NCBI GenBank assembly: GCA_049942765.1
Contig: CP188086.1
Span: 240,001 to 272,000, forward strand
Length of the DNA: 32,000 nucleotides
Source of the DNA: Candidatus Saccharimonadota bacterium
GTDB taxonomy: Bacteria; Pseudomonadota; Gammaproteobacteria; Enterobacterales; Enterobacteriaceae
Reading direction: 5' to 3'
A program made the translations under genes and the position numbers. Shown here piece by piece: positions 5,705-32,000 of the stretch. The stretch's first letter is position 1. Every line of letters begins with the position of its first letter. The notes below the pieces were generated by a model. It was given only the letters and a program-made list of their open reading frames with translations, made no database searches and was not told where the DNA came from.

Positions 5705-5914
5705 ATCTATATTTACATTTATTGTTTTTTTTTACAAGAATATATAATATTAATTATTAATTTAAATGATTTTAACCTAATATTATGTAGAAACATTAAT
5801 TTCTAGTTATTTTATAATAAATACGATGATTATTGTTTGTTAAATATCTTAATATAAATTTAAGTAAATTATAAATTTATATATATTATTTATTGTTGAT
5901 TATAGGATGATTAT

Positions 5915-7315
5915 ATGCATATGGTGTCTGTAATAGATTTATATGAAGAGAAGATTAATGTAAATACAATTATAAATATTCGAGGTTGGGTCCGTAGTAG
6001 ACGTGATTCTAAATTAGGGTTTTCTTTTTTGAACGTTTATGATGGTTCTATTATATTTTCTATTCAATGTATAGTATATAGTAATGTTGATAATTATTCT
6101 TCTGAGGTGTTAAAACTCACTATGGGGTGTTCAGTTAGTATAGTGGGAAAATTAGTAAATTCTAAGAATATACAGCAAAAATATGAGATTTTAGTACAAA
6201 AAATTCAGGTAATTGGTTGGGTGGATAAACCGAATACTTATCCAATATCTAGAAAGAAACATAGTATGGAGTTCTTAAGATCTGTATTACATTTAAGACC
6301 TAGAACTAATATAATTGGTGTGATTTCTAGAATAAGACATATGTTATTAATTACATTACATGATTTTTTACATCAGAAACAACATTATTGGATACCGACA
6401 CCAATTATTACAGGTATTGATACTGAAGGTTCTAGTGCTATGTTTCGTGTGTCGACGTTGGATTTTTATAATCTACCTAAAAATACATATGGATGTATTG
6501 ATTTTAAAGAAGATTTTTTTGGAAAAGAGTCATTTTTAACCGTTTCAGGTCAACTCACATTAGAAGCTTATGCTAGCGCTTTGTCTAAAGTTTATACGTT
6601 TGGACCTACTTTTCGTGCAGAAAATTCTAATACAAGTCGTCATCTAGCAGAATTTTGGATGTTAGAAATAGAACAATCTTTTTCTAATTTAAATCATATT
6701 ATTAGTTTTGCTGAGTCTATGTTAAAATATGTAATAAATGTTATTTTACATAAGTGTTCATATGAAATTGATTTTTTAAAAAAAAATATTAACTCTAATA
6801 TTGAAGATAAACTTAAGTGTTTAACTATGACTGATTTTGTTAGAATTAATTATATAGATGTGATTAATATTTTAATGCAATCTAATCAGATTTTTAAAGA
6901 TCCAGTTAAGTTCGGATCAGATTTATCGACTGAACATGAAAAATATATAGTTTCATATTATGGTAACGTTCCTGTAATTATTAAAAATTATCCAAAAGAA
7001 TTAAAAGCTTTTTATATGCTTTTAAATGATGATCAGAAAACTGTGTCTGCATTTGATATTTTGTTACCTGGAATTGGGGAGATAATTGGTGGTTCAGAAA
7101 GAGAATTCAAAATAGATGTTTTATTACATAGATTAAAAGAATTAAATTTTAATAGTGATAATTATAATTGGTATTTGGATTTAAGACGATATGGTACTGT
7201 CCCTCATTCAGGTTTTGGATTAGGTTTTGAAAGATTGCTTGCTTTTATTACAGATATTTCTAACATAAAAGATTTAATTCCATTTCCGCGTACAGTTAAA
7301 AATTCTCAATGTTAA
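5915..7315 (+). CDS. asnS: Asparaginyl-tRNA synthetase
   Basis: 466 aa, the same length as E. coli AsnS and colinear throughout (RGWVRSRRDSKLGFSF, FRVSTLD, FFGKESFLTVSGQL, GPTFRAENSNTSRHLAEFWMLE, YGTVPHSGFGLGFERL). An AGGA Shine-Dalgarno lies just upstream. Confidence 0.95.
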   Translation: MHMVSVIDLYEEKINVNTIINIRGWVRSRRDSKLGFSFLNVYDGSIIFSIQCIVYSNVDNYSSEVLKLTMGCSVSIVGKLVNSKNIQQKYEILVQKIQVIGWVDKPNTYPISRKKHSMEFLRSVLHLRPRTNIIGVISRIRHMLLITLHDFLHQKQHYWIPTPIITGIDTEGSSAMFRVSTLDFYNLPKNTYGCIDFKEDFFGKESFLTVSGQLTLEAYASALSKVYTFGPTFRAENSNTSRHLAEFWMLEIEQSFSNLNHIISFAESMLKYVINVILHKCSYEIDFLKKNINSNIEDKLKCLTMTDFVRINYIDVINILMQSNQIFKDPVKFGSDLSTEHEKYIVSYYGNVPVIIKNYPKELKAFYMLLNDDQKTVSAFDILLPGIGEIIGGSEREFKIDVLLHRLKELNFNSDNYNWYLDLRRYGTVPHSGFGLGFERLLAFITDISNIKDLIPFPRTVKNSQC

Positions 7316-11965: not shown

Positions 11966-11992
11966 AATAATCCTTTCTCTTTTTTTATAAAA

Positions 11993-12978
11993 TTATTCTA
12001 ATGTATTTAATATGCGTTCCCAATATAGTAATTGTTTTATAATTATAAGTTCATAATTAATATTTTTGATATTATGTAATTGATAGTAACATAAATGCCA
12101 ACATCGAATAATTTTATTTAAATTTGTAATGGAATGAACACAAGATAATTGTTGTATCAACAAAATTTGATCAATATTATGTATTAATCTAAATAAATTA
12201 TATTTATTTTTTAAAATATCTAACAATAAAGAAGATATCCAGGAAATTGTTTGTAAACTATTAGTTTTAGAAAAAAAAGAAAATAGGGGTAGAATATTTT
12301 TTTTTTTATAGATAATTTAATTTGTTTAAATAAATTAATTCTTTGTTTCCAAAGAGATGTACTTAATAATTTCTGTGCTGTAATAGGAGAACCTTCACAA
12401 ATTTTTAAAGCTGTTTGGCACATTGTAGTTGTAACATTAGTTTTTTTTTTTAACCAATTTAAACTATCTTGTTCTAATGGTAATAATAAGTTATAACTAA
12501 TACATCTACTAATTAATGTGTCAATTAATTGATAATTATTGTTTTTTTTAAAGAAAAACCAAGTATTCTTTGGTGGTTCTTCAATTAATTTCAATAAGAG
12601 ATGAATTCTATTAGAATTTAATTGTTCTATTTCAGAAAAAAAAAATATTTTGTTAATATTTTGTTGAGGTGTCTTGTATGCATTATTAAGTATATTTGAT
12701 ATAGAATCAATGTTATTATCAGTATTATTTTTTGTTTCAAATATATGATACCAATCTGGATGAACATTATGATTCATAAGTATACAGCTAGAACATGTAT
12801 TACAGTACAAAATATTTTTTTTATTGATACATAATATCCATTTTCCGATATTAAAAATCAATTCATTAATACCTATTTCTTGACTTGATTTTAATATTAT
12901 GGCATGATGACTTTTATTTTTTTTGTGTTGTTGAATTATATTTTTATAGTATGGTATTAACCATGGTAACATATTCAT
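11993..12978 (-). CDS. holB: DNA polymerase III delta' subunit (HolB); reading frame as written is broken by a 1-nt frameshift in an A11 tract
   Basis: Track ORFs 12220..12996 and 11993..12226 are the N- and C-terminal parts of one HolB homologue. MNMLPWL.. aligns with E. coli MRWYPWL.., LIEEPPKNTWFFF with LEEPPAETWFFL, and ISWISSLLLDILK with HWLATLLMDALK. The frames join if the minus-strand A11 run (12297-12307) is read as A12. The preferred start is ATG 12978, which overlaps the tmk TGA as ATGA; the ORF-track ATG is at 12996. Confidence 0.85.
12297..12307 (-). other. A11 homopolymer (T11 on the plus strand) that is the holB frameshift site
   Basis: Counted directly: ..tctat(a)11tattct.. 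on the minus strand. Upstream homology is in one frame. Downstream homology is in the frame reached by +1 A (or -2 A). Confidence 0.85.
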
Positions 12979-13622
12979 TTTTGTTGTTGTATCCATGTAT
13001 TTATTTTCTTAAAAATCATTTTTTTAACTATTTTTTCATTATAATTAGCATTGATTGTAATAGATTTGGTATTATTTTTAATTAATTCTAAATATTTTTT
13101 TCTTGTTCTAATAAAAAAATCTATGTTTTTTTTTTCTATTCTATCTAATGTACTTCTATGATATGCTCGATTAAGACCTACAGTAGGATTTACATCTAGG
13201 TATATTGTTAAATCTGGGTAAAAATTTTTTAAACACATTTTTCTTAAGTACGTGATATGTTTTTTTTTAATTTGGCATCCACCACCTTGGTATGCAAAAG
13301 TTGACATATCATGTCGATCTCCAATTACCCAATACCCTTTTTTTAAGGCTGGTTTAATAACATTTTCTACTAATTGAAGTCTAGCTGCATACATTAATAA
13401 TAATTCAGTTTTGTTCATTACTATTTCTGTTTGATATTCTGTTTTAAGTAATTTTCTAATTTTTTCAGCTAAATCAGTACTACCTGGTTCTCTTACAGAA
13501 ATAATGTTTTTAATGCCATATAAAGTTAAAATATGTTTAATGTATAAACAGGCATTATGTTTTCCAGCTCCTTCAATTCCTTCAACAACAATAAATTTAT
13601 TGTTTTTTTTCGGTATGATCAT
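12975..13622 (-). CDS. tmk: Thymidylate kinase
   Basis: 215 aa, colinear with E. coli Tmk: FIVVEGIEGAGK P-loop, REPGST, LLMYAARLQLVENVIKPAL, VIGDRHDMSTFAYQGGG, DLTIYLDV, LDRIE. It ends in TGA. Confidence 0.93.
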   Translation of the reverse strand: MIIPKKNNKFIVVEGIEGAGKHNACLYIKHILTLYGIKNIISVREPGSTDLAEKIRKLLKTEYQTEIVMNKTELLLMYAARLQLVENVIKPALKKGYWVIGDRHDMSTFAYQGGGCQIKKKHITYLRKMCLKNFYPDLTIYLDVNPTVGLNRAYHRSTLDRIEKKNIDFFIRTRKKYLELIKNNTKSITINANYNEKIVKKMIFKKINTWIQQQK

Positions 13623-16209: not shown

Positions 16210-17151
16210 TTATAAATATTTTTCAAAAGAACAATCCAAAGGAGCTTTAATACATAGTTGTTTTTTTGTAAACGGATGTATAAAAGAAATACTTCTTGCA
16301 TGTAATAATAATCTTTTTTGACGATTATGTGAATCTATTTTTGTATCTAATATTTTAGATCCATATCGATTATCAAATACAACTGGATGGCCCATATGTG
16401 TAGTATGTACTCTAATTTGGTGTGTTCTACCAGTAATTGGTATTGCATAAATGAGAGTGGTTAATTTATAATATTTAATTATTTTAATTTGTGTTTCTGA
16501 TATTTTTCCTAATTGGTGTACATAAACTTTTTTTTTATTAATTGCTATAGAGTTTAATTTTTTTAATAACGGTATTTTAATTGTTTTATTATGATTAGAC
16601 CAATGTCCATGTATAAGAGCTATATAAATTTTTTTAATTTTATGATCTCTAAATTGTTGATGTAAATGATTTAGTATTGTACGTTTTTTAGCAACAAGTA
16701 AAACTCCACTAGTTTCTTTATCAATTCTATGTACCAGTTCTAAATATTTATAATTATAATATAATATTCTTAATTGTTCTATAATACCTAAATGAATACC
16801 GCTGCCTCCATGTACTGCAATGCCAGATGGTTTATTAATTACTAATATATGTTCATCTTCAAATAGAATTTTTTGTTTTAATTTAAGTTTATCATTATAA
16901 TTTGTAATTTCTTTTTTTTTATTATTATTTCTATTTTGTAATGGAGGTATTCTAATAATATCTCCTTCTTGTATTTTATATTTTGGTAAAACTTTTTTTT
17001 TATTAACTTTGATTTGTCCAGTTCTTAAAATTTTATAAATTATGCTTTTTGGGGTTTTTTTAAATTTTGAAAATAAATAATTATCAATTCTTTGAGGTGT
17101 TATGCATTGAGTGATTTGTATTATTTGTACATTATTTATTATATTAGACAT
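16210..17151 (-). CDS. rluC: 23S rRNA pseudouridine synthase RluC (RluA family, with N-terminal S4 domain)
   Basis: 313 aa. It has an S4-like N-terminus (RIDNYL..IYKILRTGQIKVN), the catalytic HRIDKETSGVLLVAK motif and GRTHQIRVH. It sits divergent from rne and next to rpmF, as in E. coli. Confidence 0.88.
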   Translation of the reverse strand: MSNIINNVQIIQITQCITPQRIDNYLFSKFKKTPKSIIYKILRTGQIKVNKKKVLPKYKIQEGDIIRIPPLQNRNNNKKKEITNYNDKLKLKQKILFEDEHILVINKPSGIAVHGGSGIHLGIIEQLRILYYNYKYLELVHRIDKETSGVLLVAKKRTILNHLHQQFRDHKIKKIYIALIHGHWSNHNKTIKIPLLKKLNSIAINKKKVYVHQLGKISETQIKIIKYYKLTTLIYAIPITGRTHQIRVHTTHMGHPVVFDNRYGSKILDTKIDSHNRQKRLLLHARSISFIHPFTKKQLCIKAPLDCSFEKYL

Positions 17152-17584
17152 GTATATATTTTAGTATAACTTTATTATTAAAAGAATTTTTTGTTATATT
17201 TAATTAATTAAATTTATTTAAATAAATAGTATATATACTATTATATAGTAATATTTTGTTAAATATATATTTTTTATATATATAAATTTAAATTTTATAG
17301 AGAATATTTATTCTAATTTTAGTTAAATAATAGTGATAGCAGTTATTAATATTTTTAAAATGATTAAAACATATTTATATAATATCATATTATATATCAA
17401 TATATAATATAATTGTTAATTATAATATATTTAATTGTATTAAATATAAATTTTTTATTAGTTATAAATAATTTTTAATAAATTAAAATATAAAATTGTA
17501 CATATAAAGTATTATTTTATATATAATGTTTTATTTTTTATAATTTTTTATTTCCATTTCAAAATAATACTAGAGATATGTATC

Positions 17585-18928
17585 ATGAAAAGAATGTTGA
17601 TTAATGCCACTCAACAAGGGAAACTAAGGGTGGCTCTAGTAGATGGTTATCGATTATATGATTTAGATATTGAAGTTACTGGTAATAAAAAAAAAAAATT
17701 TAATATATATAAAGGAATTATCGTCAATATTGAACCAAGTTTAGAAGCAGCATTTGTTAATTATGGTTTAAAAAAACATGGTTTTTTACCATTAAAGGAG
17801 ATATCTGAAAATTATTTTTATAAACATGATAAAAATAATAAAAAGATCAGTATTAACGATATTATTAGAGAGGGGCAACAATTAATTGTACAAATTAGTA
17901 CAGAAGAACGAGGAAATAAAGGAGCTTTGTTAACTACATTTATTAGTTTACCAGGCAGTTATTTAGTATTAATGCCTAATAATCCTAGAACTTTGGGTGT
18001 GTCTAGGAAAATTGTTGGTTTTAATAGAATAGCACTAAAAGAAATGTTATTATCACTATCAATTCCTAAAAATATGGGATTAATTATTCGTACGGCTGGA
18101 TTAGGGAAATCAATTAAAACATTACAATATGATTTAGATTGTAAAGTCCAACTATGGCAATCTATCGTACATAATTATCGAAATTATTCTTCACCAATTT
18201 TACTATATCAAGATAGTAATATCTTGATACGTGCATTTAGAGATTATTTGCATGAAGATATAGGTGAAATTTTAATTGATAATCCTAATATATTTTCTTT
18301 TGCATGTCATCATATAAATTTATTAGGTCGATTAGATTTTATAAATAAAATTAAATTGTATACAGGATCCACTCCATTATTTAGTTATTATCAAATTGAA
18401 TCTCAAATTAATTTAATTTTTCAAAGAGTAGTAAGATTACCTTCAGGAGGTGAAATTGTTTTTGATAACACGGAAGCATTGATTGCTATTGATGTGAATT
18501 CATCTCGTTCAACTCAAGGGATGGATATTGAACAAACTGCATTTAATACAAATTTAGAAGCTGTTTATGAAATTACTAGACAATTGCGATTAAGAGATTT
18601 AGGTGGTTTAATTGTTATTGATTTTATTGATATGACATTATTGAATCATCAGAAATCTGTTGAAAATATATTGAGAGATATAGTTAAATATGATAGAGCT
18701 AAAGTACATGTTGGTTGTATTTCTCGTTTTGGTTTATTAGAGATGTCTAGACAGCGGATGAGATCTTCTTTAGTTGGTTCTATTAATAATATTTGTTCTA
18801 GATGTAGTGGTACTGGATTTATTCAAGATAATAAATCTCTTTCGTTATTGATTTTAGGATTGATACAATTAATAGTTTTTAAAGAAAATATATGTATAGA
18901 AGATATTATAGCTGCTATAGAAAATTGA
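17585..18928 (+). CDS. rne: Ribonuclease E, N-terminal catalytic region, terminated as written by an in-frame TGA at 18926-18928
   Basis: 447-aa ORF almost colinear with E. coli RNase E residues 1 to ~447: MKRMLINATQQ, S1-domain IYKGIIVNIEPSLEAAFV, ERGNKGALLTTFISLPGSYLVLMPNNPR, DNTEALIAIDVNS, LRLRDLGGLIVIDFIDM, ISRFGLLEMSRQR, and the Zn-link CSRCSGTG. Confidence 0.92.
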   Translation: MKRMLINATQQGKLRVALVDGYRLYDLDIEVTGNKKKKFNIYKGIIVNIEPSLEAAFVNYGLKKHGFLPLKEISENYFYKHDKNNKKISINDIIREGQQLIVQISTEERGNKGALLTTFISLPGSYLVLMPNNPRTLGVSRKIVGFNRIALKEMLLSLSIPKNMGLIIRTAGLGKSIKTLQYDLDCKVQLWQSIVHNYRNYSSPILLYQDSNILIRAFRDYLHEDIGEILIDNPNIFSFACHHINLLGRLDFINKIKLYTGSTPLFSYYQIESQINLIFQRVVRLPSGGEIVFDNTEALIAIDVNSSRSTQGMDIEQTAFNTNLEAVYEITRQLRLRDLGGLIVIDFIDMTLLNHQKSVENILRDIVKYDRAKVHVGCISRFGLLEMSRQRMRSSLVGSINNICSRCSGTGFIQDNKSLSLLILGLIQLIVFKENICIEDIIAAIEN

Positions 18929-19315
18929 TATTGTTTATTAGATAAGAAAAAACAAGAAATAAATAATATTGAAAAATATCGTTTAAAAAGTCAAATGATA
19001 GTTATACAGAATAAAAATATAAAAATTCCTCATTATTCTATTATTAAAATTAAAAAAGGAAAACATATTAAAAATAATAGTTATAATTTATTTAAAACAT
19101 GTACGAAACTATTATTTCGTAGTAATAGATTACAGATCAATAATATGTTGAATAATTTATCTCAAATTTTATACAATTTATATTTTTTTTATTTTAATAC
19201 TAGAAAAAAAGAAGATAATCAAATTAAGCATTTTAATACATTGTATATTTTAATGTATAAAATATATGATTTTTTTCTTCAAAAAAAAATATTGAAAAAA
19301 TTATATTATTTTTAA
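18929..19315 (+). other. rne: In-frame continuation of rne beyond the TGA (small-domain remnant plus a short tail)
   Basis: It is in the same frame as 17585..18928, with no further stop until 19313-19315. The translation YCLLDKKKQEINNIEKYRLKSQMIVIQNKNIKIPHYSIIKIKKGK aligns without gaps to E. coli SYLLNEKRSAVNAIETRQDGVRCVIVPNDQMETPHYSVLRVRKGE. The ORF track lists only the part from ATG 18995. Confidence 0.75.
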
Positions 19316-20182
19316 GTACTTTTTATTTTTTTATTTTACTGTCCAATTTAGAAAAACATTAACAATAAAAATTTATTAAGTAATGTTTATATTTAATTTA
19401 ATATATATTTTATATGATATAGGTTATTAATGTATTTTTAATAATTAAATTATTAATTATGTTTAAAAACATTTCAATTATATAATTATATTTAATATGT
19501 CTTATTTTATAAATAATGTCAATAACATGTTTAAATTATTTATGATATTGTTTTTAATTTATATGATAATTTTTAGATACATAAAAAATTATTTTTATAA
19601 AATTTATTTTTAATACATATTTTTTATTTATTAAATGAATTTTGGTTATTTTTAGATTTTATATAACAGATTATTTTGATTAAATTTGTTTAAATGAACA
19701 AGATTTTTTATTTTTATACTTTATAAGTAATTATGTATAATGTTTTTATTATTAAAAATAATTAATTTATTAAAAATATAATTTTATTTGATTTCATTAT
19801 TTATTTAATTAATTAGGTTTTAATTTGTATGTAATACAATTTATTGATGTTATATGTATTATTTAATAATTTTATATATATAATTCATTATTTAGATTTG
19901 TGTAATATTAATATTTGTTATATTAAATTTTTTTATTGTTTTAATAAATTCATAACTATTTATATTCTTTTTTTGTTATTTTTTGTTGTTAATTATATTT
20001 AATTTATTAGAAATATACAAATTATTAGTATATCTCTAGTTAATATGCGTTACATTTCAAAAAATGTTTTTATTTTTTTCAATTATAATTTTTTATTTTT
20101 AAACTTTGATGTATTGTATTCCTACTTCGTAGGGAGACATAATTAAATATGTTGTATTAATTTTTATTTATATGTATTAAAT

Positions 20183-20219
20183 ATACATCATATATATATC
20201 ATATATATATATGATGTAT
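20183..20219. repeat. 37-nt near-perfect palindrome (17-bp arms, 3-nt centre) between convergent rne and flgK
   Basis: Checked base by base: atacatcatatatatat (20183-20199) pairs with atatatatatgatgtat (20203-20219). The core is (TA)n but the outer tacatca/tgatgta is specific. The 12-mer atgtattaaata also occurs twice, at 20172 and 20212. Confidence 0.6.
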
Positions 20220-20375
20220 TAAATAAATTTTATTGTATGGAAGGAAATTAGAAATTTGTATTTTTATTACCTGTTGGTATAATAAAAATATATTAATATC
20301 AATCAAATATATGAAGTAATCAACTAACTTATGTATGTTGTTTGTAAACATTATATTAAATTATATAATTTTTTT

Positions 20376-21980
20376 TTATGTTTTGTTAATTTTGTTTACA
20401 GAATGATATTCATTAATAGTTTTTTCTTCATTTTCTTGTGGTAATACATGTATTATTGATTGATTTAATGGTTTGTTTAATTTGTAATCATCAATTTTTT
20501 TCTGAATAAAATTTTTTAGGTTTGCATATGCTTCCTGACATGTTTCTGATTGATTGACTATTTTTTCGCGATGTAAAAGTATTAGTTGTTCTATGTTTTC
20601 TACAAAACGAAAATTGTAATTCCATTCTTTGCTGAGAGCTATGTTAGTATTCGGAGTTGCTTCTACGTATAGATTATTAATGATATCTGAAGAATTATGT
20701 ACTATATATTTATTTTGCTCTCTTAATGTGTTTGGTTTATATGTAACTTTAATACCATTAAATATGATTGAAGAAGCATGTTCATTAATAATAGTATCGT
20801 AATCTACGGTTTTTTGATTAGTATCATCAGTATTTATTTTCCATTTATTATTTCCTAAGAAAGTTAAGTAATATTTTTCTGGTAGAGCATGATTAAAAGA
20901 ATTCCATGAAGTAAAGATATGATCTTTTTTGTTATTATATTTATTAGGTATGATTATTGGTGTGGTTTCTGAAAAAAACCTTTTTCCCATATAATTTGTT
21001 ATGTCAATTCCTGATTGATGTATTTCATTAAAATTTTTTGTAAAACTTGTGATTATTTGACCAATTTTGTTATTTACTAGGTCTAGTATATATTTACGAA
21101 AATATAATATTCCAGCTACATGACCTGTTATTATTAGAGGTTCTAATGATATCTCTCTATTTGTTGTAGGATCTATATATCCTAAGTTATATTCTATATG
21201 TGAATTATGAATATTATTATAATATGGATCTAATATTGCAATAATATTTGCTATTTTTGAATCATCAATTAGATTGTATTGCTTGTTCAGTGATATAATG
21301 AGATTATTATTCGATATATTTGTTGTGGTACCTAAAATTTCAGTTAATTCATTTGAATACTTATTTCTAATAGCAATCAAAGGTTCTATATTTTTTGATT
21401 GATTAATTCCGGTGTTAACTTGTATCTGATTATATTCTTTTATTTGTCGATGAGCGTTATTTATTATATTTAGATATCTGTTTATTTGATTAATGTAATA
21501 AAATATATCTTGATTGACATTTTTATAAAGTTCACAGATATCTTTATTAATGTTGGTGACTTCTTGTATAAATTTTTTTGCTATTACTATTGTTTGTCCT
21601 CCAAACTGTGTTTGTCGGTTTTTAAATACAGATCTACTTAAACTAATATAAAAATCCATCATATATTCATTGAAAATCTTGTGATGTTCTTCAAGTAATG
21701 CTAGAGTTTTTTTTAATTTATCATTGAATGATAATTCAAATCTTTGTTTAGGATTTGCATAATCGATATATTTGGAAGTTAAGTTATTATTGTTGTTTTT
21801 ATATATATATATTGTTTGATTATTTATATCGTTTTTATATAATTTGTTATTATGGTACTTAGATATATTATTTATGGTTTTTTTTTTATTATAAATAGTA
21901 TTTTTTATCTTATCTTGTTTTTTTAAAAAGTTGTTAGTATCATAAATTATATTGTTATATATTTTTTGAATTCTAGGCAT
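20376..21980 (-). CDS. flgK: Flagellar hook-filament junction protein 1 (FlgK), diverged, C-terminus shortened
   Basis: 534 aa. The central region aligns to E. coli FlgK (LIITGHVAGILYFRKYILDLVNNKIGQI..FNEIHQSG vs LNTGSLGGILTFRSQDLDQTRNTLGQL..FNTQHKAG, and YYLTFLGNNKWKI vs YKISFDNNQWQV). The N-terminal NNISKY matches NNISSY. It lies downstream of flgJ. Confidence 0.8.
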   Translation of the reverse strand: MPRIQKIYNNIIYDTNNFLKKQDKIKNTIYNKKKTINNISKYHNNKLYKNDINNQTIYIYKNNNNNLTSKYIDYANPKQRFELSFNDKLKKTLALLEEHHKIFNEYMMDFYISLSRSVFKNRQTQFGGQTIVIAKKFIQEVTNINKDICELYKNVNQDIFYYINQINRYLNIINNAHRQIKEYNQIQVNTGINQSKNIEPLIAIRNKYSNELTEILGTTTNISNNNLIISLNKQYNLIDDSKIANIIAILDPYYNNIHNSHIEYNLGYIDPTTNREISLEPLIITGHVAGILYFRKYILDLVNNKIGQIITSFTKNFNEIHQSGIDITNYMGKRFFSETTPIIIPNKYNNKKDHIFTSWNSFNHALPEKYYLTFLGNNKWKINTDDTNQKTVDYDTIINEHASSIIFNGIKVTYKPNTLREQNKYIVHNSSDIINNLYVEATPNTNIALSKEWNYNFRFVENIEQLILLHREKIVNQSETCQEAYANLKNFIQKKIDDYKLNKPLNQSIIHVLPQENEEKTINEYHSVNKINKT

Positions 21981-30273: not shown

Positions 30274-31888
30274 ATAATAAATACAAATATTGTTGTTTGT
30301 TATTTATTCAATAAACATATTATTTAATTTAGCAATTATTTTTATATGTTTTTTCATTAGATTCAAACATATATGTATATTATATTTTTGAATGTAATAG
30401 CTATATTAATAGTATGAGTTTATATTACATATATAATATTTTTTTTAGTAATATTTATAGTATATAAGTACTACATTATTAGTACAATAATTTATGTATC
30501 AGTGCATTATTCATTGAAATGTAATATAAATAATTATTTATTTTGTTTATAAATATTTCGTTTAATTTTTTATTTAATTAATAGTAGAACATGTTTATAT
30601 AATTAATAATTAACAGTTATATATATACTTAGAATGAATGGAATAGATATTTTTAAATTTACTTATCCATAAATTAACTATATTTTTTTTTAGATTCAAT
30701 AATATTAATTTTATTAAGCTATATATGAAAATTATTGGATTAAATATATTTTTTATAAATATTTATTTATGAATAATTATACATGTCTATATATGACATT
30801 TATGTATAAAATACATTAATACTTAAAATTTAATAAAAACTACATTTGTATGTTAACTAAAAAATTATATTTTTTAAAATTAGTCTATTATCGATATAAA
30901 CATATATATGTTTAAAATAATTTTTATTAATAATGTTCATTATTTGATTAATTATTTTTTCTCTTGGTATTAATTAGTGGAAATTAATAATTAATTTGAG
31001 AGTGTATTTTAATGTTTTTAATAAAGACAATTTAGAGGATATTGTAATAATTAATGTCTTCATAAGATACACATTTTTTTTGACATCATTAAACTTACAT
31101 GTTTTATATATTAATTTTTCAAGAGAGATTTTATTATTTTTTATATAGAAAAAAATATATCAGATTAGATTCATTTTAGAATATATAGTAATGAATACAT
31201 AATTGATATTTTGATAATGATATTAGTTATAATATTATTTTTTATTATGTAATAATATTACATATTATAATATATAACTATATAATTTATTAATTTAGAT
31301 ATATTAAAATAATGTATTAATATCGATTTTTTTTTAAAGATAGACTTTACTTACAACAAGCATGAAATCTTTAATAAGTTAAAAAATTAAAGCAAAAAAA
31401 ACACTATTTATATAATTTTTATATAAGTAATTATAATGATAATTATTAAATATTAGTTATAACTAATTAAATTACCATATAAATATTTTAAATTATATTT
31501 GTTAAAATAGATTTTTTTAATTTTTATTTTGGATTTTTAAATATTGTAAATGTTATTTCGGTTAATATATATATTATATAATCATTCATTTGTTGTTAAA
31601 TTAATTTTATGTTTTGCCTGGTTTGTGATTAATTAATTGTATTATATATTATATATAATGATTAAATAAATTTAATATAACAGTATGCAAAGTATATAAT
31701 ACAATTTTTAAAAATGATTATAATATTTTTTTTGTTTGTATGTAAAATATGGATAATTTTTATTATTAATCATCCATAATAAATTATTAATGATTAGTTT
31801 TTATAATGTGAAATTTTTTATATAAATATGTATGTTGATTTATTGATTAGTTAAGTATTTTTTAGAGTGTGATTAAGGTAATGGTAAT

Positions 31889-32000
31889 ATGAAATATTTA
31901 GTTTTTTGTATTATGTTTTTATTTTTTTGTGTTTTTGAAACACCAGTATATGGGTATACTGATCATCCATTATTTTATGTAGGATCAAAATTTGGAACGT
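31889..32000 (+). CDS. ompA: 5' end of an OmpA-like outer-membrane protein (partial, runs off the window)
   Basis: ATG 31889 is preceded by an AAGG Shine-Dalgarno ~10 nt upstream. The open translation MKYLVFCIMFLFFCVFETPVYGYTDHPLFYVGSKFGT is a signal peptide plus the first beta-strand motif. Compare E. coli OmpA ..[22 protein letters not shown]. Only 37 codons are visible. Confidence 0.5.
   Translation, partial: MKYLVFCIMFLFFCVFETPVYGYTDHPLFYVGSKFGT

Follow-up and report, generated by a model that had tools for sequence, protein, structure and literature searches.

In Gammaproteobacteria, RNA decay centers on the essential enzyme RNase E, whose tetrameric assembly and degradosome scaffold are usually deemed integral to its function; the small domain of the enzyme forms the dimer-of-dimers interface and part of the groove that binds duplex RNA. 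Here we describe the gene for this enzyme, rne, in Buchnera aphidicola of the gall aphid Eriosoma harunire, where an in-frame TGA falls within the small domain and no scaffold half is encoded. The closest described systems are engineered: the chromosomal Escherichia coli truncations rne 438-delta and 418-delta are viable, with specific activities ~7- and 10-fold lower, respectively (PMC6954427; Ali & Gowrishankar, NAR 2020), and RNA binding promotes dimerization of such truncated RNase E forms (PMC6954427). A shorter form without the Zn-link, 395-delta, is lethal at single copy, as Caruthers et al. 2006 are cited in PMC6954427. The two viable alleles share with the 447-residue product predicted here a large domain and Zn-link, the lack of a scaffold and a small domain that is mostly missing; they are laboratory constructs in a free-living host, whereas the Buchnera case is natural, is known from its sequence and retains a degenerate stub (residues 415–447). 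The case is hence a natural variant of a known enzyme, the counterpart of these engineered truncations, and not a new kind of system.

We think it likely that the TGA is a real and recent nonsense mutation in an eroding rne gene whose main product is a truncated enzyme of 447 residues. The principal new result behind this reading is that the small domain is degenerate on both sides of the stop, with a near-neutral pattern of sequence change, whereas the catalytic core is under purifying selection.

The rne Locus and Its Reading Frame

The gene lies in a stretch of 32,000 nucleotides (contig CP188086.1, positions 240,001 to 272,000; the window in what follows) of the chromosome of Buchnera aphidicola (Eriosoma harunire) (627,315 bp, accession CP188086; PMC12243488), which was assembled with Miniasm from Nanopore reads at 431x and polished with Racon and then, using Illumina reads, three times with Pilon (PMC12243488). 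Read directly from the window, the open reading frame (ORF) starts at 17585, meets TGA at codon 448 (18926–18928), stays open for 128 further codons (18929–19312) and closes with TAA at 19313–19315; an earlier interpretation made without database searches (the sequence-only reading) had described the same stop, the same 128 codons and a readthrough length of ~576 aa, all of which the direct reading and stop counts bear out. The features of the locus are as follows.

17585–18925, plus strand: rne up to the TGA (447 codons), with the S1, 5'-sensor, RNase H-like, DNase I-like and Zn-link regions and the first 33 small-domain residues (NCBI identity, Pfam, PDB match)
18491–18622, plus strand: active-site residues D303 (18491–18493), N305 and D346 (18620–18622) (gapless E. 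coli alignment, codons read directly)
18794–18817, plus strand: Zn-link CSRCSGTG, with C404 (18794–18796) and C407 (18803–18805) (alignment, codons read directly)
18827–18925, plus strand: degenerate start of the small domain, codons 415–447, still translated (near-invariant columns, dN/dS)
18926–18928, plus strand: in-frame TGA, codon 448, next base T (Ala codon in relatives)
18929–19096, plus strand: rest of the small domain, codons 449–504, homologous to E. coli 449–504 but degenerate (gapless alignment)
19097–19315, plus strand: open tail, codons 505–576, plus TAA; rich in Lys, Asn, Ile, Phe and Tyr, no homology detected (BLASTP)
19316–20375, no strand: non-coding DNA of 1060 bp, 11.9% GC, where relatives encode the C-terminal half of rne (all frames closed)
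16210–17151, minus strand: rluC, synteny anchor upstream of rne (synteny with relatives)
20376–21980, minus strand: flgK, synteny anchor downstream, convergent with rne (synteny with relatives)

The product of 17585–18925 is 100% identical to the NCBI entry 'Rne/Rng family ribonuclease [Buchnera aphidicola (Eriosoma harunire)]' (P0001, 447 aa), and rluC, rne and flgK keep the order and orientation that they have in Buchnera of E. lanigerum, E. grossulariae and Pterocomma populeum. The closest sequences to the window protein are the RNase E of Buchnera from E. lanigerum (P0002) and E. grossulariae (P0003), both of 974 aa; that of APS (P0058) has 902 aa. These sister enzymes are orthologues in the same rluC-rne-flgK context that keep the small domain (PF20833, 106 bits) and a long C-terminal half, whereas the window gene has neither.

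Homology continues across the stop. By HMMER, residues 1–504 form one gapless alignment with E. coli RNase E (structures 2VMK and 2BX2; E = 4e-189), with the TGA opposite E. coli Ala448; the ~45 gapless residues claimed past the TGA by the sequence-only reading are thus real homology by HMMER and PF20833, although the true span is ~56 residues. The rne frame contains no stop in 18929–19312, compared with 9–23 in each of the other five frames, and none of 200,000 shuffles of the stretch was stop-free (mean stops 15 for mononucleotide shuffles and 11 for shuffles within codon positions), so that the openness of the frame is far beyond chance.

The TGA takes the place of a sense codon, as had been proposed from the sequence and as the alignment with related endosymbionts now confirms: codon 448 is GCA or GCT (Ala) in relatives, so that no fewer than two nucleotide changes separate TGA from the ancestral codon. 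The surrounding codons have changed from ATT GCA TGT TAT in relatives to AAT TGA TAT TGT in the window. TGG accounts for each of the 46 Trp codons in 27 window ORFs, an in-frame TGA occurs in no gene but rne, and tmk (12975–13622, minus strand) ends in TGA where both Eriosoma relatives have TAA. Given exclusive use of TGG at ~20% GC and the tmk terminator, UGA does not encode Trp within the window, and it is a true stop in this genome. Neither prfB nor trnW lies in the window, which holds no tRNA genes.

Decay of the Small Domain

With the TGA bridged, the small-domain profile PF20833 scores 51.9 bits over positions 1–85 of 86, compared with 106–107 bits in relatives; the part before the TGA alone scores 21.6 bits over positions 1–33 of 86, below the cut-off of 26.8. 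The 447-aa product keeps 33 of ~115 small-domain residues (415–447), which qualifies the earlier statement that it lacks nearly all of the domain: most is indeed gone, and this stub is retained.

We scored near-invariant columns (at least 95% conserved in an alignment with 118 relatives), with eleven relatives scored for comparison. The window protein differs at 13 of 24 such columns in residues 415–447 and at 11 of 19 in residues 449–510 (0–3 in the eleven relatives for either segment), which amounts to 24 changed columns of 43 for the two segments together. Because pairwise dS plateaus at ~0.7–0.9 in all comparisons (composition-driven saturation), we relied on these columns and on a branch-specific comparison, in which lineage dN/dS was calculated for the window rne against a majority ancestor inferred from three relatives. 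Codons 415–447 give a dN/dS of 1.21 (dN 0.35) and codons 449–510 a dN/dS of 0.72 (dN 0.34); values that look neutral are confined to the part from about codon 401 on. Small-domain identity to E. lanigerum is 46%, compared with 86% between E. lanigerum and E. grossulariae, and since twelve other window genes are about equidistant, the acceleration is specific to this region.

As the decay lies on both sides of the TGA, this is not an intact gene struck by a single nonsense mutation. The explanations listed by the sequence-only reading hold up as a list, but it missed this two-sided decay. Whether the DNA past the stop is under purifying selection, which the same reading had treated as informative, receives a divided answer: at the amino-acid level codons 449–510 evolve near-neutrally, and the frame has nonetheless been kept open.

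Conservation of the Catalytic Core

The large domain is recognized by PF10150 (292 bits) and PF00575 (36 bits), and the product exceeds the cut-off of the Rne/Rng subfamily model TIGR00757 (482 bits vs 326). It keeps the active-site residues D303, N305 and D346, the 5'-sensor residues R169 and T170, and F57, F67 and K112 of the S1 domain, as well as D26, D28 and D338; among the functional residues listed for the large domain only K106T and R373K are changes. Cysteines C404 and C407 of the Zn-link are likewise kept, and the motif CSRCSGTG (404–411) matches the family consensus CPRCSGTG at 7 of 8 positions amid diverged flanks, a retention that fits a Zn-linked dimer. No stop or frameshift interrupts the 447 codons in DNA of ~25% GC or below, and identity to sister Buchnera RNase E is 74% over residues 1–400. 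Codons 216–400 show a lineage dN/dS of 0.22 (dN 0.12), which places the catalytic core under purifying selection.

The duplex-RNA groove, whose residues tell Rne from Rng (PMC9841416), is partly altered: R3, Y269, Q270 and K433 are kept, Q22 (a column at least 95% Gln among relatives) and H268 have become Tyr, and R488 and R490, both past the TGA, have become Lys. The groove, including Q22 and the small-domain residues, may have decayed as a unit.

Near the N terminus, E12G, E13K and Q22Y (codons 12, 13 and 22; 17585–17650) are lineage-specific changes in columns at least 95% conserved in the 118 relatives.

The paralogous RNase G (Rng, 489 aa, dimeric) resembles the window protein in being short and scaffold-less, and the NCBI name of the latter is 'Rne/Rng family'. 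On the RNase E model the window protein reaches 727 bits, compared with 286 on the RNase G model; it also has rne synteny, and RNase G has a full small domain, unlike the window protein.

Loss of the C-Terminal Scaffold Half

Beyond 19315 no open frame remains up to the flgK stop at 20376 (longest open run 55 codons, all frames), and the PNPase_C profile PF12111 has no match in the window gene. The C-terminal halves of relatives consist of low-complexity sequence with much Lys, Asn and Ile and finish in a conserved motif that matches PF12111 weakly (23 bits in APS, 14.8 bits in E. grossulariae). Because RNase E has 974 aa in the Buchnera of both E. lanigerum and E. grossulariae, the loss of the scaffold half is specific to the E. 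harunire lineage. The earlier claim that this half is gone therefore stands; absent with it are the membrane-targeting helix, the RNA-binding segments and the sites for RhlB, enolase and PNPase.

A search of 19316–20375 for remnants of the C-terminal half by tblastn returned only low-complexity noise on both strands, and weak matches to AGGH and SSSP motifs hinted at by MAFFT were equaled by 28–153 of 200 shuffles in composition-aware local alignment. The start of rne and the stop of flgK lie 2791 bp apart, compared with 3044–3078 bp in relatives; decay of the C-terminal half in place would fit this spacing but has no support from the sequence. The tail itself (residues 505–576) has no significant similarity to the linker and membrane-targeting region of relatives (best BLASTP E = 0.13, to the E. 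lanigerum linker). Its best 15-residue hydrophobic moment (0.59, residues 518–532) is reached by 25% of shuffled tails. The evidence accordingly does not support the tail as a relic amphipathic membrane-targeting helix, which the sequence-only reading had floated.

Loss of the C-terminal half recurs among reduced symbionts. Scaffold-less RNase E of 584 aa (P0043, on the Buchnera-like contig L005), 602 aa (P0096, on contig L006) and 588 aa (P0115, Baumannia) end soon after the small domain, as the 576-aa readthrough form would. Their small domains are uninterrupted, with differences at 1–2 of 24 and 0–2 of 19–20 near-invariant columns, and because P0043 and P0096 keep the small domain conserved, scaffold loss alone does not account for the decay in the window gene. 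For natural RNase E that ends in or before the small domain, the best 150 representatives of 50%-identity clusters are all at least 694 aa, a survey that is uninformative for rare truncated members.

On contig L005 (Logan SRR23525762) ~720 bp without a called gene (5756–6477) follow the 584-aa rne, and no flgK precedes flgJ; here flgK and the C-terminal half of rne were both lost independently.

Age of the Stop Codon

The state of the frame past the TGA places a limit on the time for which it can have gone unselected. In its 128 codons a single step can lead to a stop in 86 ways, and with the AT-biased spectrum observed ~10% of substitutions would make one, such that a neutral frame would still be open with a probability of 0.15 after 0.05 substitutions per site and of 0.02 after 0.1; indels are left out of this estimate, and including them would tighten the bound. 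The frame past the TGA has thus not been neutral for long (under ~0.08 substitutions per site). The small domain, in comparison, has diverged from its inferred ancestor at ~0.32 of nucleotide sites, and neutral simulation of that divergence over the 62 alignable codons gains 1.8–4.3 stops, with a probability of no stop between 0.009 and 0.14 depending on assumptions. As neutral simulations are rarely stop-free, we conclude that selection held the frame open even as the residues it encodes drifted. An intact frame in turn implies that the TGA is very recent, that it is leaky and the region is still translated, or that the base call is wrong; among these we favor a recent TGA over a leaky one and over a consensus error.

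A Proposed Stepwise Erosion of rne

We propose that rne has eroded domain by domain. In a first step the C-terminal scaffold half would have been lost on this lineage, leaving a protein of ~576 aa; the small domain would then have been freed from amino-acid constraint with its reading frame still open; and finally the TGA would have arisen recently at codon 448 and been fixed by drift, in a domain already without function. Such strong drift is typical of Buchnera. The 128 open codons past the TGA would be a fresh relic. The 447-aa product, with a conserved large domain and Zn-link and with neither tetramer nor degradosome, would most likely act, by analogy with the E. coli alleles, as a Zn-linked dimer of reduced specific activity. 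We infer the order of events, the oligomeric state and the sufficiency of the truncated enzyme alike. The sequence-only reading had allowed for a functional truncated enzyme, for which E. coli now offers a precedent (PMC6954427); of the recent mutation, readthrough and error that it also named, the first is the likeliest.

Several observations weigh against this proposal. The frame past the TGA is strikingly intact, whereas a freely tolerated truncation predicts that a stop would have appeared earlier in the long relaxed phase, and the chance of meeting a very recent stop is about 1 in 5 to 1 in 10. No second assembly of the same rne is on record, the NCBI entry being the sole database copy. 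In E. coli a mutant of eight groove residues, K433, R488 and R490 among them, was lethal, and the groove was reported to be essential (PMC9841416). Within residues 1–400 of the window protein, 33 of 257 near-invariant columns have changed (0–17 in the eleven relatives), including Q22Y and K106T.

If the TGA is real, this lineage is a natural experiment, living on a 447-aa core that would self-associate through the Zn-link only while its sisters encode 974 aa. It would bear out in vivo what was found in E. coli, that 418-delta and 438-delta suffice for viability, and the small-domain part of the duplex-RNA groove would be dispensable in a tiny transcriptome. The rne gene described here also offers a dated snapshot of how an essential gene erodes, one domain after another, under drift in a symbiont.

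Alternative Explanations

Of the competing accounts, the one that survives best is a consensus or assembly error, or a minority allele, at codon 448, with a sense codon in the real gene and a scaffold-less RNase E of ~576 aa that has a degenerate small domain and a short tail. It accounts for the perfectly open 128-codon frame without any coincidence, and the data leave some room for it: the assembly started from Miniasm on Nanopore reads, the break in the holB frame at an A11 run could be a leftover long-read error, and Illumina coverage was perhaps poor at ~14% GC. The defect is, however, a substitution and not a homopolymer indel, in an assembly of 431x depth polished by Racon and three Pilon rounds; the other window genes checked look intact, except holB; and the 447-aa product is what NCBI annotated in this very sequence. 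We regard an error as unlikely. Were it true, the gene would encode an RNase E that lacks the scaffold and whose small domain evolves fast, still unusual in that the other scaffold-less symbiont enzymes have conserved small domains.

A real TGA that near-cognate tRNA-Trp reads through at a useful level, with a minor 576-aa form and selection keeping the frame open, is in our judgment more doubtful. It would explain why the frame past the TGA is open while its amino-acid sequence drifted, and in-frame UGA in essential genes has been proposed for Providencia siddallii strains that keep prfB and trnW-CCA (PMC10540940). That system, too, is a reduced symbiont among the Gammaproteobacteria in which an essential gene contains UGA in frame and remains homologous past it; the window, by comparison, has one such codon in its 32 kb, at an Ala position, in a neutrally evolving domain and with U as the next base, whereas tRNA-Trp readthrough is favored by A, according to work cited in PMC10540940. 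The residue in relatives is Ala and not Trp, the amino-acid sequence past the TGA evolves near-neutrally, and the window has no second in-frame TGA and uses TGA to terminate tmk. A 15-bp A/U-rich hairpin that spans 18925–18972 (z = -2.0) might be taken in favor of readthrough, but it holds the stop in its 5' arm and not downstream of it, and 9 of 200 shuffles fold as well. More improbable again, in our view, is that the UGA is old and read through at a physiologically relevant rate, with both 447-aa and 576-aa RNase E made; if true, this would be an early step toward in-frame UGA tolerance in a code-11 aphid symbiont, comparable to Providencia siddallii. Any readthrough of the TGA would give a first indication that Buchnera depends on reading through UGA.

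The inverted repeat behind the hairpin (TTGATATTGTTTATT ... AATAAATAATATTGA) has 15 A/U-rich base pairs, and its 121-nt context has a minimum free energy of -14.6 kcal/mol; it is probably a product of chance in AT-rich DNA. We also considered and rejected a quasi-palindrome (hairpin-templated) origin of the changes around the TGA, in that the changes give wobble pairs and the fold is marginal relative to shuffles.

That the whole of rne is a dead pseudogene heading for deletion, with RNase E function dispensable or otherwise supplied, we hold to be very improbable: the changes at near-invariant columns of the large domain and a score of 727 bits on the RNase E equivalog NF008074 (NCBIfam), below its cut-off of 908, are set against a dN/dS of 0.22 in codons 216–400, the retention of all catalytic, 5'-sensor and Zn-link residues, 447 codons free of stops and frameshifts, and the presence of rne in every other Buchnera in the protein search. 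Reassignment of UGA to Trp (genetic code 4), by which rne would simply be intact and which arose elsewhere in just such a setting of very low GC (~20%) and reduced genome (PMC10540940), is ruled out within the window by the Trp codons, the tmk terminator (TAA in relatives) and the lack of any other in-frame TGA, and is virtually without a chance.

Other Features of the Window

The rluC-rne intergenic region (17152–17584) has 433 bp and 8.5% GC. No Rfam family, the enterobacterial autoregulatory element of the rne 5' UTR included, matches anywhere in the window at gathering thresholds; autoregulation of the E. coli type may be missing in this symbiont. In scans, promoter-like sites were less frequent than in shuffles and no terminator appeared; such scans are uninformative in DNA as AT-rich as this.

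Downstream of flgA, the last 1.7 kb of the window (30274–32000, 14% GC) contain no frame, on either strand, that stays open for more than 61 codons and are possibly another decayed gene. The holB gene is split (11990–12996, minus strand): its ORF (12220–12996) encodes 258 aa, the frame breaks at an A11 run (12297–12307), and the C-terminal ~75 aa (ISWISSLLLDILKNK..., matching IIWICSLLLDSIK of relatives) continue in another frame past it. In the Buchnera of E. lanigerum and E. grossulariae holB is also frameshifted, at a different, A12 run, with lengths of 985 and 1000 nt that are not multiples of 3. These poly(A) runs are either sites of transcriptional slippage or, in the window genome, residual homopolymer error of Nanopore sequencing.

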